Part shown: positions 42,001-48,000 of the stretch, one piece after another
How positions within the stretch are numbered: the first letter of the stretch is position 1
How the letters are laid out: every line of letters starts with the position of its first letter
Source: Chitinophagaceae bacterium
GTDB lineage: Bacteria; Bacteroidota; Bacteroidia; Chitinophagales; Chitinophagaceae
Reading direction: 5' to 3'
DNA length: 64,000 nt
Assembly: GCA_014379345.1 (NCBI GenBank)
Contig: JACMLY010000115.1
Location: forward strand, 9,935-73,934
Made by a program: the position numbers

Positions 42001-45000
42001 CAGTGAGCAATTTTCGCTTCTCAATCAATTCACAAAAAAAGCTGTATCAGAAGCACCTGCACAGACAGAGGCTTTGGAATCGGAACAAACGACTCCTCAA
42101 AATTTTTTAGACAGTCTTGGGTTCGGCGATAAATTGAAAAATGCCGGCATAAATTCTAATTCTTTATTAAAAGGTGCATTGGGTATTTTAGGTCCGATTA
42201 TCCTGGCGCGAATGTTTCGCGGAGGACGAAGGGGAGGTAGTGGAATGGGTGGTATGTTAGGTGGTGGTGGTGGTTTGGGTGGCGGACTTTTAGGTGGGTT
42301 ATTAGGAGGCGGCGGACTGCTTGGTGGTCTACTGGGTGGAGGTAGGGGATTTGGGAACGCAGGTGGAATGCTTGGACGAATATTAGGTGGCGGTCGTCGC
42401 TGGTAATTACAAGTACAGTCTTATTGCATGGTGCAGGTAGGTTACAATTAGTATAAATAATCTTCGCGCACTTTCTACAATAATCATATTGCATATTCTG
42501 CAAATTTCACAACAAACGCTTTTGCCGGATCAGTCACTGTCAACTGATCAATATCTGAGTGTGCAATCGCGGGCTTCATAACTTCCAAACCTTTACCCGT
42601 CATAATAAAACTGCCCGCATCCTGATGCATATATCTATGTTCTTTCTATGTATCTATGATTCTATGTGGTAAAAAACTCTTGCACAGTTTTGAAGACTAT
42701 CCGGTTGCAGTTAATTTACCACATAGAATCATAGATACATAGTAAGAACATAGTAATAAGCTTAGATTAAAATTGTTCATTTAATTTGCATATCCAATTT
42801 GTAGTTATTTCGTAGACAGAATCACTCATATCAATCAATGTCTCTGATGTTAACAAATAAACCTTTCATGGGAATTGAGATCGGCGGTACTAAACTTCAG
42901 CTTGTAACAGGTTCTGCTGACGGTAATTTGCTGACAAAACACCGCTTTCAGATAAATAAGAAAGAGGGCGCCAATGGTATTAGAACATTCATTGAAAAAA
43001 CAGTACGTGAAAATTATAGGAAGAAGATTGCAGCTGTCGGAATTGGATTTGGCGGGCCTGTGAACTGGAAGACGGGAAAAATAGCCACTTCATTTCACAT
43101 CGAAGGTTGGTCTGACTTTAACCTTGCAGAGTGGCTCGAACCAATTGTTGAAGCTCCTGTTTTTGTTGAAAATGACGCAAACACGGCTGCTCTCGGCGAG
43201 TCAATTCATGGAGCAGGAAAAGGATATAAAATAGTCTTGTACATTACAATTGGAAGCGGCGTTGGCGGAGGACTCATCATCAATAATAAAATCTACCATG
43301 GCGCCATTCCGGGTGAGGTTGAAATTGGCCATCTACAAATGAACCGTTCTGGAGACACTTTTCAATCGCTTTGTTCCGGGTGGGCAGTGGATGAAAAGAT
43401 CAGAAAAATCGTTGCTAAAGAACCTGATGGAGTACTTGCAAAACTTGTTGGAGATAATACTTCCGGGGAGGCCATTTTTTTAAAAAAAGCATTAGAAGAA
43501 AATGATTCAAAAGCATGGAATATTTATAACGAGACGTTCGATGATCTTGCGTTTGGAATTTCGCATGCCATTCACTTGTTTCATCCGGAAATAGTAATAC
43601 TGGGTGGTGGGTTTTCCTTATTGGGAAAAATATTGAAAGAAAGTATTGAAAAGAAACTGCCTGCCTATTTGATGAAAACTTTTCATCCGGGACCGATTAT
43701 TGGTCTTGCAACGCTCGAAGAGCTGTCTGTTCCGGTAGGAGGCATTTTATTAGCCCATCAAAATTTTGACAAATAAAGAGTATAATATGGAAGATTATGC
43801 AATCGCCTATATAAAAGCACAGAAAGCTGCGCTTGATTCCATTCCCGTGGAACAAGTGGCTGAATTGATCCGGAAATTTAAAAATGCATGGAGCGACGAT
43901 CGCCAGATATTTGTTTTTGGAAACGGTGGCAGCGGTGCCAATGCCTCTCATTTTGTTACCGACTTAGGTAAGAGCGCCTCTGATGTGGTAAAAAAACCTT
44001 TTCGCTGTCTTTCACTAAATGACAATGGCCCATGGATGACTGCTATCGGGAATGATTATAGTTACCAGGAAGTATTTTCTAGACAGCTCATGAATTATGG
44101 CCGCGCCGGCGATCTTGTATTCACTTTAAGTGTCAGTGGAAATTCACCGAACCTTGTGGCTGCATTTGAATGGGCGAAGGCAAATGGACTTTATACAATT
44201 GCCCTGGTTGGCGCCAAGCGCGGACAACTGGCTGAGCTGGCAGATTTTGTTATAGTGATCGATTCAACACACTACGGCCGCGTAGAAGACGCCCATATGG
44301 GGATCTGCCATATGATATGTTATGCGTTCGTTGAACATCAGGTAAATATGGGTAATGATAAATAATTAAAATAGTCATTATTCACCACATAAATTCATAA
44401 CACCTATTGCAATATCATTAGCTAAACATAATAAATATGCCGCGTTGAGGTAGGCTCGTCAACTTAAAAGTAATACCGGTTTTTGCAATTCTATTAGGGA
44501 TAAAATGCAGGAACCACCCATACCCTTGATGGAACAATCCCGTCAGGGATTGAAAATCGATAGAAAGGAATATCTCCATAGACAATCCCGAAGGGATTAA
44601 ATATCGGCACCAAGTACGATTATCCAAAGGCTATACAATATGTCATAGAAAAATCCCGTCAGGGATTAAAAATCGGTAGAAAGAAAGATCTCCGAAGCCA
44701 ATCCCGGAGGGATTAAATATCGGCAGCAAGTACGATAACGCAATGGAAATGCCCCATGCATAGAAAAATCCCGTCAGGGATTAAAAATCGGTAGAAAGAA
44801 AGATCTCCGAAGACAATCCCGGAGGATTAAATATCGGCAGCAAGTACGATTACCCGTAATACAATCCTCCAAAAGATAGAACATAGTTACCGTCAAAATT
44901 ATAGCACGGCTTTAAAAATATATTTTTCATCGTAAGAGATTTCGAATTTTTCTAATAATTCTTTGTATTCCTCAATAAATGTTTTCTTCTTATGGTGGAA

Positions 45001-48000
45001 CTCCTGGTTCTCAATGTACTTTATAACATCAGGCAAATGTGATTTGGAGTAGGAAAAAGCGCCGTAACCTTCCTGCCAACTGAATTTTCCATTTGTAAAT
45101 TTATTGTTGTTAATCCATGCCGACGAATCTCGTTTAATATTTTGCATTAAGTCTGATACCGATTGTAAGGGCCGCATTCCAATCAATACATGCAGGTGAT
45201 CTGGCATTCCATTTATCGTCAAAAGCTTGTGATCATTATTTTGCACAATTCCGGTAATATATTTGTAAAGCTCATCTTTCCACAAACGCTTAATCAAAGA
45301 AATCCGGTTTTCTACGGCAAAAACCAGTTGTAGATGCATTTTAGTATAAGTGTTGGCCATTTGAAAGTTTTGACAAATATAATTTCCAGATTAAAAAAGG
45401 CCGAGATTTTTTCAACCGCATTTCATGTTTTTTACTCTTGGTGAGATAATTCATTCCGCTACAATATTTCATCCCTAAGGGATGTTTTGTGAGACATTTT
45501 TTTGTCTACCGATATCTCATCCCTACGGGATGATTTTCTTTTCTTTGTTTTTCTACCGATATTTCATCCCTGGCGGGATGAATGGGCATTTGGAGCTTCT
45601 CTTAACTTAATGACATTGCCCCAACAGGATGTTTCTGTCCAACAATGTCCCGCTACAGAATGTGTCATGCACATTTATCATCTTGCTACCGGTATTTCAT
45701 CCCTACCGGATGTTTTGTGTGACATTTTTTATCTACCGATATCTCATCCCTACGGGATGACTTTTCTTTTCTTTGTTTTTCTACCGATATTTCATCCATG
45801 GCGGGATGGAAGGGTTTAATCTTTGCGAGTTTGAATTTTATGGGATGCAAATAAATATTTTAACCCACTATAGAAATTCTCCGTAGATATTTTTTTATAT
45901 CACAATTCAGAAGAAGCCAACGGTGTAATCCCTTTCTTGATCCCCTCATGGTTTGCATCAATATGTTTAATGATCAGCGAAGAAGGAATATGTTCGAGCC
46001 ATATGCTTTTGCCCTTCACGAGTTTTTCCCAGTTGTCGTAACTCACCAGCATCAGGTCGAATCGGGCAAGCATCGATTTGTCAATTGTTCTTCCCATCCA
46101 TATCTGTATGCTTTCCTGGCCGGTTTTATTAATACGCAAGATTTCTTCCTGCCAACGGCTATCGCTTTGCGACAAACCGCCTGCATCTAAGATGGTTACT
46201 GATGAATGAATGCTATGAATAAACTTTCCCCCATACTTCAGTAAGAAAAGATCGGAAGGTGAGAATATTGGGATAAGGATTTTTCTCGCTTCATAAAAAT
46301 CCTTATCGATGAATACCCCCACGCTGCAATGTGCATCAGCAATAAAGCTGGTTGCCTTCTCATCCATCATGTCATTGACCGGAAGCAATTGCGATAATCT
46401 ATTAGTGCCGAGCAATGTTTTTAAAAGATGAGGTGGATATAACAACTTCACGGTTGCTGCAACGTTCCCCACAAATGTTCCTTTTAATAAGGACTTCCCG
46501 GCATCCACCAGTATAAAATCATATTGTTCTTCCTGCGTAATTTTTGCAATTTCTTTCCGCACATCCAGCACGGGGTGGTATATGGTTTCTACGTCGACAT
46601 TCAATTTTTTCGCTTCACTCCTGATTTTGCTAAAGCTTTCTTTCTCAAATTCGGGGATCTGCCAGGGATTAATATCGGCATTGTAAGAAATATTGATTGC
46701 GGTAATATCAACGGGTATCGAATGTTTTGCCAGCATCTGGTTTGCCAGGCGTAGGAGTTTCCTTCCGTTAAGGGCTGCGCCAAATGAGAGCAAAATCCGG
46801 TAAACTTTTTTTTGCAAAACAGGTTCAGGCAGTTTGGTATCGATTCTTTTATCGGGCATCAGCCAATTGATCAGGTCGAGAGCTGGTCCCGTCATAAAGG
46901 TGGTGATCAATGCCATCAATACCATCATCGCAAAAATTTCCGGCGATAATATTCCCAGGTCGTACCCGATGTTCAGTACGATCAGTTCCATCAATCCCCT
47001 TGTATTCATCAAAGCGCCTATTGATAAGCTGTTCTTCCAATTTTCTCCCACAATTTTTGCCGCAAGAGCGCTTCCGCCAAATTTTCCCACAACGGCCACC
47101 AACACAACAAATCCGCAGGTGATCCACATATCCCCTTCTGTTAGCAACCCGATCTGTGTACGCAAGCCGGTAAAAACAAAAAACAGTGGCAATAGTAATA
47201 CAAGACTTACATCCTCAATTTTGTCAACTACTATTTTTCTGAAATTCAGATCCGGCGGCATGACCACACCGGCGAGGAAAGCCCCGAACAATGCATGGAT
47301 GCCGATGATCTCGGTGGTGTAAGCGGACAATAGCATCAGCATAAAAACAATGGCGAGTACCGGTTTACTGACCATTTCACGGTTTGCATATATGCTTCCG
47401 AGTCGCCTGAAAAAAGGACGGATTACCAAAAGCATCAGCAACACATACGCAAGTGCCAGCCCGATCGTAAACAATGCGCTAACAAAACTTCCAGCCTTTA
47501 CAATGGCGATCACTGTAGCCAATATGCACCAGGCTGTCACATCGTCTGCAGCGGCACAGGTGATCGCTAATGAACCGAGATTGGTTTTAGTAAGGCCTCT
47601 TTCCTGTATGATCCTTGCTAAAACAGGGAATGCTGTAATACTCATTGCAATACCCATAAATAAAGCGAAGGACAAAAATGAGATGGTATCGGGTGCATGC
47701 GCGATAAAAAGATAATAGGCGAGGCCCATGCCAAGGGTGAAAGGAATGATAATACTGGCATGACTAATGATCACTGCCCCACGGGCCTGTTTACGGATCA
47801 TGTTTACATCGAGCTCCATGCCGATCACAAACATGAACAGTATCAAGCCCACCTGGCTTAAGAACTGCAGATTGCCTAGTGAGGCCACCGGAAATATAAA
47901 CTGCGACATCTCCGGAAAGAAATTGCCGATGACAGAAGGCCCCAGCACAATTCCCGCCACAATTTCACCAATCACGGTGGGTTGACCGATTTTATTAAAA

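Follow-up and report, generated by a model that had tools for sequence, protein, structure and literature searches.

The 64,000-nucleotide stretch analysed here (the window; positions 9,935 to 73,934 of the forward strand of contig JACMLY010000115.1, assembly GCA_014379345.1 of a Chitinophagaceae bacterium) encodes on its minus strand, at 44899-45360, a 153-amino acid (aa) Y1 enzyme of the histidine-hydrophobic-histidine (HUH) type, and this gene is bracketed by two arrays of short hairpin repeats that face each other. The open reading frame (ORF) and its HUH and tyrosine motifs, already pointed out in the initial annotation, held up: the product matched Pfam Y1_Tnp over its whole length (3e-27), and both motifs aligned to those of ISDra2 TnpA, with PDHVHLLL opposite PDHLHVLI and KYIESQ opposite KYIENQ. 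The HUH motif DHLHVLI (H55 and H57; residues 54-60) is encoded at 45181-45201 and the tyrosine motif KYIENQEFHH (Y115, Q119, H122 and H123; KYIENQ being residues 114-119) at 44992-45021, both on the minus strand. An alignment, which the annotation had called for to check the conservation of the HUH and tyrosine residues, bore it out: H55, H57, W95, Q96, Y115, Q119, H122 and H123 are invariant across 33 aligned homologues. Because the HUH, tyrosine and glutamine residues are invariant, the protein probably still cuts and rejoins single-stranded DNA (ssDNA). An identical protein (100%, P0001) is recorded from a Chitinophagaceae metagenome-assembled genome (MAG).

The label "RAYT-type" (for tyrosine transposases associated with repetitive extragenic palindromes, or REPs), which had been given to this enzyme, failed at the protein level. 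The product passed the NCBIfam IS200 model NF033573 (65.2 bits, cut-off 55) and failed the REP_Tyr_transpos model NF047646 (31.6 bits, cut-off 80), and its tyrosine signature is Y---Q--HH, not the class-2 Y---NP. The only solved relatives found by sequence were ISDra2 TnpA and its Deinococcus homologue (E = 2.9e-6). The AlphaFold (AF2) model (predicted local distance difference test score, pLDDT, 80.6) displayed the expected beta-alpha fold with extra C-terminal helices after the tyrosine helix. It takes the form of a cis monomer, as TnpA_REP does, unlike the domain-swapped dimers of IS608-type structures. Ranked by E-value, Foldseek placed the ISDra2, IS608 and IS200 TnpA proteins first (about 1e-8) and E. 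coli TnpA_REP (4er8) later (3e-5); ranked by template modelling (TM) score and root-mean-square deviation, the best superposition was instead 4er8, with a sequence identity of 14%, and this comparison of a predicted fold does not separate the IS200 type from the RAYT type. The Y---Q--HH signature defines subclass 1.2 of the TnpA_Y1 proteins, which was described as near the IS200 transposases yet without the properties of an insertion sequence (IS), with 1.7 copies per genome and only 36% identity between copies (Quentin et al. 2018, BMC Genomics 19:475, PMC6006769). Every defining feature tested was found in the window protein: the Y---Q--HH signature, a HUH motif of the DH[IV]H type (DHLH here, DHIH in the family consensus), the WQ pair, a length of 153 aa versus near 148, a C-terminal domain of about 30 aa, a Bacteroidetes host (Bacteroidetes and Cyanobacteria being the hosts given for the subclass), a single copy in 64 kb and no typical IS200 ends. 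Judged on its sequence, the enzyme is thus a member of the IS200-like subclass 1.2.

The repeat unit that flanks the gene is 27-28 nt long and consists of CTACCGATAT, three bases and an ATCCC-loop-GGGAT hairpin. An ungapped scan of every position of the 64 kb, on both strands, for the 24 specified positions of the consensus CTACCGATATYTMATCCC-N3-4-GGGATK found exactly 12 units, six on each side of the gene and facing each other. Those to the left lie on the minus strand and start at 44536, 44584, 44652, 44700, 44767 and 44814 (20-23 of 24 positions matched), and those to the right lie on the plus strand and start at 45458, 45506, 45553, 45686, 45733 and 45781 (19-24 of 24), so that the arrays are reverse complements of each other, as had been claimed. 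Likewise in agreement with the earlier observation that the hairpin is absent from the rest of the window, all nine occurrences of ATCCC-N3-4-GGGAT in the 64 kb fall within 44537-45758, versus 0.12 in shuffled sequences, and outside the locus all matches to the tail ATATYGG in the window were coding sequence without hairpins. Folded as ssDNA, eight of the nine units tested were predicted to form hairpins of 6-8 bp (-4.5 to -7.4 kcal/mol), and the degenerate unit at 45781 folded weakly (-3.4 kcal/mol, z -0.66). The stems differ between the two sides in a compensatory manner: those of the right array are CATCCC/GGGATG, those of the left array AATCCC/GGGATT. The right unit nearest the gene carries a 1-nt deletion in its tail (GCTACAATAT).

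The units are grouped into modules, defined by the unit scan and by alignment. On the left, three minus-strand modules carry two units each: module 1 (44529-44622; units 44536-44563 and 44584-44610), module 2 (44645-44738; units 44652-44679 and 44700-44726) and module 3, nearest the stop codon (44760-44852; units 44767-44794 and 44814-44840). On the right, two plus-strand modules carry three units each: module 1, nearest the start codon (45451-45586; units 45458-45484, 45506-45532 and 45553-45580), and module 2 (45678-45814; units 45686-45712, 45733-45759 and 45781-45808). The initial annotation had described the left array as three tandem two-hairpin units of about 115 bp, and Tandem Repeats Finder indeed reported a period of 116 nt over 2.8 copies (88% matches), in addition to a sub-period of 47-48 nt on the right, but the last left hairpin (44816-44829) is short of one G. 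It had also assigned the tail to the second left hairpin only, which proved wrong since the first hairpin of each left unit is tailed as well (AAAATCGGTAG). The two right three-hairpin units, placed about 227 bp apart, do start 228 nt apart, but two of the three hairpins of the second have degenerate stems.

The left module measures 93-94 nt, with 3 of about 95 columns differing between modules 2 and 3; the right module measures 136-137 nt, its copies are about 91% identical, and the similarity ends abruptly at both edges, breaking off in right module 1 just past GGGATGAATGGG. The unique segments noted earlier between the left modules are real and consist of unrelated DNA, although they span 21-24 nt instead of 25-27 nt. 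Their spacer-like look is likewise genuine but not CRISPR-like: across the arrays, unrelated linkers separate sharp-edged copied modules that are 91-97% identical. The plus-strand DNA between the right modules (45587-45677) is also unrelated and may hold two decayed units (CCCAACAGGATGTTT, 45620-45634); these fell below the threshold of the ungapped unit scan, and the repeat family concerned (D4) is only suggestive of them. Had slippage or unequal crossing-over built the arrays, the DNA in between would have been duplicated too; the unrelated linkers argue for discrete modules copied or inserted side by side, rather than for simple slippage. BIME (bacterial interspersed mosaic element) and REPIN (REP doublet forming a hairpin) clusters look the same, with sharp-edged conserved modules and unrelated linkers. 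Read tail first, a module extends from 8-12 nt ahead of the first CTRCC to 7-8 nt beyond the last hairpin; the cleavage sites around the IS608 and ISDra2 hairpins lie at distances of this order, a resemblance that may serve as a lead. An attempt to derive cleavage sites from the phase of the arrays was dropped, these being tandem duplications without a recoverable phase.

More than 8000 homologues of the enzyme were retrieved, the best 120 of which, from Chitinophagaceae, Flavobacteriaceae, Bacteroidales and others, share 68-82% identity with it, and an exhaustive search of cluster representatives gave 190 clusters at 50% identity with E below 1e-30. The hairpin TCCC-N3-5-GGGA was then scanned for in 84 loci of homologues 63-79% identical. 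Within 1.2 kb of the gene, 359 such hairpins were found, none of them inside the gene, compared with only 21 in the 313 kb of farther flank, which corresponds to 2.22 versus 0.067 hairpins per kb, a 33-fold enrichment (p = 2e-138); at least one hairpin lies within 300 nt of the gene in 76 of the 84 loci. On the sense strand, the locus reads [hairpin-ATATYGGTAG][hairpin-ATAT] gene [ATAT-hairpin][CTACCRATAT-hairpin] and is symmetric, with the tails on the gene side. The outer upstream unit, TCCC-GTA-GGGA-nnn-ATATYGGTAG, lies 60-80 nt before the start codon, the outer downstream unit, CTACCRATAT-nnnn-TCCC-TAC-GGGA, 60-80 nt past the stop codon, and the inner units, which retain the ATAT part only, 0-40 nt from the start and stop codons. 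Orientation is biased accordingly, with 121 R to 48 F units upstream and 94 F to 53 R units downstream, and the six units on each side of the window gene all have the orientation expected from this rule.

In the family, a unit combines the 10-nt tail CTACCRATAT with a hairpin of 5-7 bp, (R)TCCC-GTA/GTNA-GGGA(Y), the two being about 3 nt apart, and its flanks are A/T-rich. Among 219 distinct units, the fifth stem pair covaries (G-C in 151, A-T in 55), with 213 paired versus 173 expected if the two positions were independent. When any perfect 5-bp stem with ATAT after it was accepted, the stems proved varied (GTCCC 152, ATCCC 70, GTGCC 33, GTTCC 24, GCCCC 14), while the tail ATATYGGTAG is widely shared, the GGTAG bases being present at 61-78% of the units (the ATAT core was part of the search pattern). 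In the hairpin it is thus the structure that is conserved, in the tail the sequence. Arrays are common in relatives: L029 and L035 have 15 units upstream of the gene, L080 has 15 downstream of it, L047 has five with a period of 58 nt, and L119 has a seven-unit array without the gene.

The genomic context of the gene in relatives differs from that in the window, with OsmC, A2M, OEP-HlyD, M48 peptidase and MFS transporter neighbours elsewhere. In 10 sampled relatives, the neighbours were housekeeping genes, with no tnpB and no cas; the 27 neighbouring ORFs of TnpB size in the relatives lacked the C-terminal CxxC zinc ribbon, and the 10 that were scanned with Pfam all belonged to unrelated families. 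In the complete genome of Aequorivita sp. (CP122379.1; L209 3001-5280), three gene-plus-ends units encoding 100% identical 153-aa proteins are arranged head to tail, with spacings of 811 and 1007 nt, followed by a further set of ends without a gene, and a second Aequorivita assembly (GCA_038742625.1; L208, 2014-3462) carries two copies of the gene-plus-ends unit. Several other arrangements were observed. In L016 (2859-4772) and L021 (917-4098), the Y1 gene and its hairpins lie between the gene of an outer-membrane efflux protein (OEP) and an HlyD-type membrane-fusion gene on the same strand, a setting that looks like the inside of an efflux-pump operon. In a Ginsengibacter MAG (L003), the 3' end of an alpha-2-macroglobulin-like gene is present as an exact direct repeat of at least 91 nt (3590-3680 and 4640-4730), spaced by 1050 nt, whose two copies enclose the Y1 gene together with the hairpins upstream of it. 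An independent 1082-nt Logan contig (L004) runs back into its own start (1-30 = 1053-1082), at a period of 1052 nt. A tandem duplication, a circle that was excised or an error of assembly could each account for this. About 20 of the cluster representatives, 270-320 aa long (P0122, P0126, P0129, P0131 and others), were matched twice by the query and are thus fusions of two Y1 domains. These fusions stand out because the IS200/IS605 TnpA proteins act as dimers and because the family also has tandem gene copies. Four IMG/VR contigs (L085-L088) contain the general unit CTACCRATAT-N4-TCCC-N3-4-GGGA and do not encode the Y1 protein, and these matches may be due to chance or to host-derived DNA.

To look beyond the gene, the pattern ATCCC-N3-4-GGGAT-NANATATYGG was scanned against 185,579 species genomes (596 Gb), which gave at least 119 stretches but no per-genome copy totals. 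The taxa among the matches listed include Chitinophagia, Cytophagales, Flavobacterium, Sphingobacteriaceae, Bacteroidales, Ignavibacteria, Chlorobium, Balneolales and Kapaibacterium. A subclass-1.2 gene lies 60-260 nt from the match in 18 of the 119 stretches listed, and in 45 the match is too near the edge of the stretch to judge; the other 56, in which the match is interior, have no such gene within at least 1 kb. In 38 of these 56 gene-less stretches, two or more units occur within 300 nt, typically as outer-R, inner-r, inner-f and outer-F within about 150 nt, which corresponds to the two ends of the locus minus the gene. The gene-less element is present on at least seven contigs of one Prevotellaceae MAG among the matches listed, and alignment of the copies from six of them revealed that they share a palindromic element of about 257 nt, whose ends are the same while the sites around it are unrelated; several other genomes have two to four stretches each among the matches listed. 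In at least some genomes, the repeat thus appears to behave like a REPIN or a miniature inverted-repeat transposable element (MITE). The initial annotation had left open which repeats the enzyme acts on, and the comparative answer is this hairpin-plus-tail unit, found both with the gene family and in gene-less copies.

Some gene-less copies showed further features. In the Prevotellaceae MAG Gx481_bin101, two of them (L163 130-200 and L167 170-240) end exactly in the loop of an inner hairpin (TCCC-TGAC|GGGA) and continue there into another palindromic module, CATTAAAnnTTTAATG-GGGGACTGAC, which is also found directly beside the left end of full copies. Cutting or recombination at the loop may be hinted at here, but two copies are too few to build on. 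In a Kapaibacterium MAG (L120, about 4700-4830), a gene-less unit lies directly upstream of a CRISPR-array-like stretch with the repeat GGTTCATCCCCACGCGTGTGGGGAATAC.

How does this locus relate to known systems? REP/RAYT pairs are the textbook case of a domesticated transposase with its non-autonomous repeats, and have been characterised mainly in Proteobacteria and only with class-2 enzymes. With E. coli TnpA_REP and the Pseudomonas RAYT-REPIN systems, the locus shares a usually low-copy Y1 gene flanked by inverted cognate hairpins, gene-less inverted pairs resembling REPINs (here among the genomes scanned), BIME-like clusters of conserved units with variable linkers, and a GTAG-containing tag. 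It differs from them by its class-1 enzyme (Y---Q versus Y---NP), which fails the REP_Tyr_transpos model, and by its short hairpin (5-7 bp). In REP/RAYT systems, GT[AG]G stands at the 5' foot of the hairpin; here, GGTAG stands 9-14 nt off the stem, on the gene side (at +10 to +14 and 3' when the loop reads GTA). REP/RAYT repeats are lineage-specific, whereas the present unit is conserved across a whole superphylum, and its counts are low so far (none outside the locus in 64 kb, at least seven contigs in one MAG). The locus probably works like REP/RAYT, yet is not a member of that family, as the class-2 protein tests failed and GTAG is missing from the hairpin foot.

Its closest protein relatives are found instead among the IS200/IS605 elements (IS200, IS608, ISDra2 and their palindrome-associated, PATE, or MITE derivatives). 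The ends of IS608 and ISDra2 are likewise short hairpins near a conserved motif about 10 nt off, and short gene-less derivatives exist. However, IS200/IS605 ends are two different hairpins on one strand, whereas the ends here are inverted and symmetric with two hairpins each; in addition, tnpB is missing, a C-terminal domain and an HH motif are added, and no dispersed identical copies were seen in the 64-kb window, those of Aequorivita being in tandem. The earlier conclusion of a REP/RAYT-like arrangement rather than a standard IS200 therefore stands: there is no tnpB, the ends are not asymmetric on the same strand, and the 64-kb window holds no second copy of the gene. With subclass 1.2, the agreement extends from the protein (Y---Q--HH, DHxH, WQ, about 150 aa, a C-terminal extension of about 30 aa) to the Bacteroidetes host, the low copy number (one in the 64 kb) and the lack of typical IS200 ends. 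The one reported property that did not hold is the absence of REPs, since the hairpin-plus-tail unit brackets the gene in the window as well as in 76 of 84 relatives, and is also found without the gene. No later paper on subclass 1.2 was found in the literature searched and, to our knowledge and within that literature, the cognate repeat of this subclass has not been described before. What stands out is that a single repeat sequence is conserved across a superphylum, and that tandem arrays form so readily at every scale.

Taken together, these results make it probable, though well short of certain, that the locus is a REPtron-like system run by an IS200-like (subclass 1.2) enzyme, with the flanking repeats as its cognate cis elements: the obvious candidate for a substrate is the structurally conserved hairpin that stands, with its fixed tail, next to the gene, and gene-less copies and sharp-edged modules are the products to be expected. 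In such a system, the hairpins would extrude on ssDNA, for example at replication forks, the enzyme would bind stem and loop and read the tail, and it would cut nearby through Tyr115, with a metal held by H55, H57 and Q119, before rejoining the strands. With copies in cis as well as in trans as its targets, it would copy or move discrete hairpin modules, leaving sharp-edged modules beside the gene, scattered gene-less palindromic elements of four hairpins and, in some genomes, tandem gene-plus-end units. We infer the mobility of the units, their binding, the cleavage sites and their position, and the identity of the copier as the enzyme, not host recombination.

Several points weigh against this REPtron-like reading. 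In the window, nothing outside 44529-45814 scored above 17 of 24 in the unit scan, which is the level of shuffled sequence, and any dispersal in this genome is thus conjectural. Some single matches of the genome scan are due to chance. About 11 of the 119 stretches listed come from taxa outside the FCB group (the Bacteroidota/Ignavibacteria/Chlorobi group), and about 70 chance matches of the pattern are estimated over the 596 Gb, a number that fits these stretches. Among the matches listed, no gene-bearing stretch came from a multi-copy genome, and the scan does not show that these genomes carry the gene. The arrays could also come from host recombination between neighbouring similar units, without the enzyme. 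The tail lies 4-14 nt from the hairpin on its gene-facing side, a geometry that neither IS608 nor E. coli REP has, and cleavage sites are thus not transferable from them by analogy. Finally, the table of the 2018 survey gives "REP: no" for subclass 1.2 (PMC6006769), although its REP search demanded GT[AG]G at the hairpin foot; since the present units lack it there, they would have escaped that search.

The main alternative is an autonomous, selfish IS with inverted ends: [R r gene f F] would move as one piece, the four-hairpin elements without a gene would be its PATE-like MITEs, and the arrays would be the debris of repeated local insertion. The IS200 equivalog model of NCBIfam is passed, the nearest solved relatives are true transposases, the contexts of the gene are unrelated between genomes (ROK/SIS and a Na/H exchanger here; OsmC, A2M, OEP-HlyD, M48 and MFS elsewhere), gene-less copies share their ends, and Aequorivita CP122379.1 has three 100% identical gene-plus-end units. 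Those identical copies, however, sit in tandem at one locus and are not dispersed, most protein clusters are found on a single contig, and subclass 1.2 as a whole was reported with 1.7 copies per genome, 36% identity between copies and no IS properties (PMC6006769). Identity stays flat at 65-72% between Chitinophagia, Flavobacteriia and Bacteroidia, which is more in keeping with a constrained gene of long residence than with IS turnover, and symmetric ends are unlike those of any characterised IS200/IS605 element. Together with the missing tnpB and the two hairpins per end, this symmetry sets the locus apart from a standard IS200/IS605 element, and we regard an autonomous IS as unlikely.

A transposition-free explanation, which we find improbable, is that the hairpins serve the host as bidirectional terminators or insulators, or as operators for autoregulation of the Y1 gene, and that slippage or unequal crossing-over built the arrays. 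Terminator-like sites (a hairpin followed by a T-run) are indeed frequent in 44500-45830, with 11 found versus 1.2 expected; most are F-oriented unit hairpins read outward from the gene, followed by a T-rich run, on both sides, the flanks in the family consensus are A/T-rich, and the array periods of 47-58 nt equal the usual spacing of outer and inner units, which would favour unequal exchange. The arrays may therefore also stop transcription that leaves the locus, and a terminator or regulatory role is possible as an additional function of the hairpins. As the sole explanation it fares poorly, because slippage would duplicate the spacer along with the unit, whereas modules 91-97% identical are separated by unrelated DNA, because multi-copy gene-less elements with common ends at unrelated sites of one genome need mobility or copying, and because an invariant catalytic tyrosine and HUH motif would be unexpected in a protein that only binds DNA. 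Lastly, a CRISPR-like or other RNA-encoding array, with a 28-nt hairpin repeat and short spacers, is scarcely credible. It was considered in view of the constant length of the variable segments between left modules and of permissive Rfam matches of the left units to CRISPR-DR25, DR17 and DR35, all below threshold (E = 0.15-0.7; 21-23 bits versus cut-offs of 35-42). It was rejected, as no Rfam family was found at the gathering threshold, no cas genes lie nearby, the 20-nt "spacers" within the modules are themselves repeated, and the arrays are inverted around a Y1 gene in an arrangement that recurs in 84 loci.

If the REPtron-like reading holds, a class-1, IS200-like enzyme found widely in Bacteroidota is now seen to share the lifestyle known from REP/RAYT. 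With its short length, and with a tail and stem core that are found again and again between Chitinophagaceae and Ignavibacteria, the unit would be a clean substrate for biochemistry on the choice of hairpins and cleavage sites by Y1 enzymes; it could also serve as an annotation marker for intergenic repeats that are currently unlabelled in Bacteroidota genomes. We further raise, tentatively, the possibility that the subclass-1.2 enzymes and the TCCC-GTA-GGGA/ATATYGGTAG unit form an ancient, mostly vertical partnership across the FCB superphylum (Bacteroidota, Ignavibacteriota, Chlorobiota and Balneolales), and hence a second, independent origin of the REP/RAYT lifestyle, from the IS200 branch. 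Such a partnership would be marked by a recognition sequence that has stayed frozen on the time scale of phyla and by a tendency towards tandem arrays of modules, of genes and, as fused two-domain enzymes, of proteins, and it would point to a host role in ssDNA handling or transcription insulation, not selfish transposition.

In the window, the locus is neighboured on one side by genes for TerB, a ROK kinase and a SIS-domain protein, and on the other by those for a Na+/H+ exchanger (Na_H_Exchanger) and an M19 dipeptidase; neither tnpB nor cas genes were found among the neighbours of 44899-45360. On the minus strand, TATATTTG (45375-45382), read from the sequence 14 nt ahead of the ATG, is a candidate Bacteroidetes-type -7 box and would mark the promoter of the gene, judged on the consensus TAnnTTTG. 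A sigma-70 scan found 7 promoters versus 6.6 expected, which is the level of chance for a model that is not of this organism's promoter type. A tRNA scan found nothing, and the permissive Rfam search otherwise gave sub-threshold snoRNA noise. Elsewhere in the window, two perfect 60-nt palindromes are built from short repeats, one at 20860-20919 from CACGAATTA-like repeats and the other at 56776-56835 from GATTAGCC repeats. Their sequence is unrelated to the hairpin unit, and short-repeat palindromes like this pair occur in intergenic DNA beside gene-less units in other Bacteroidota (L094, L112, L129 and L158).

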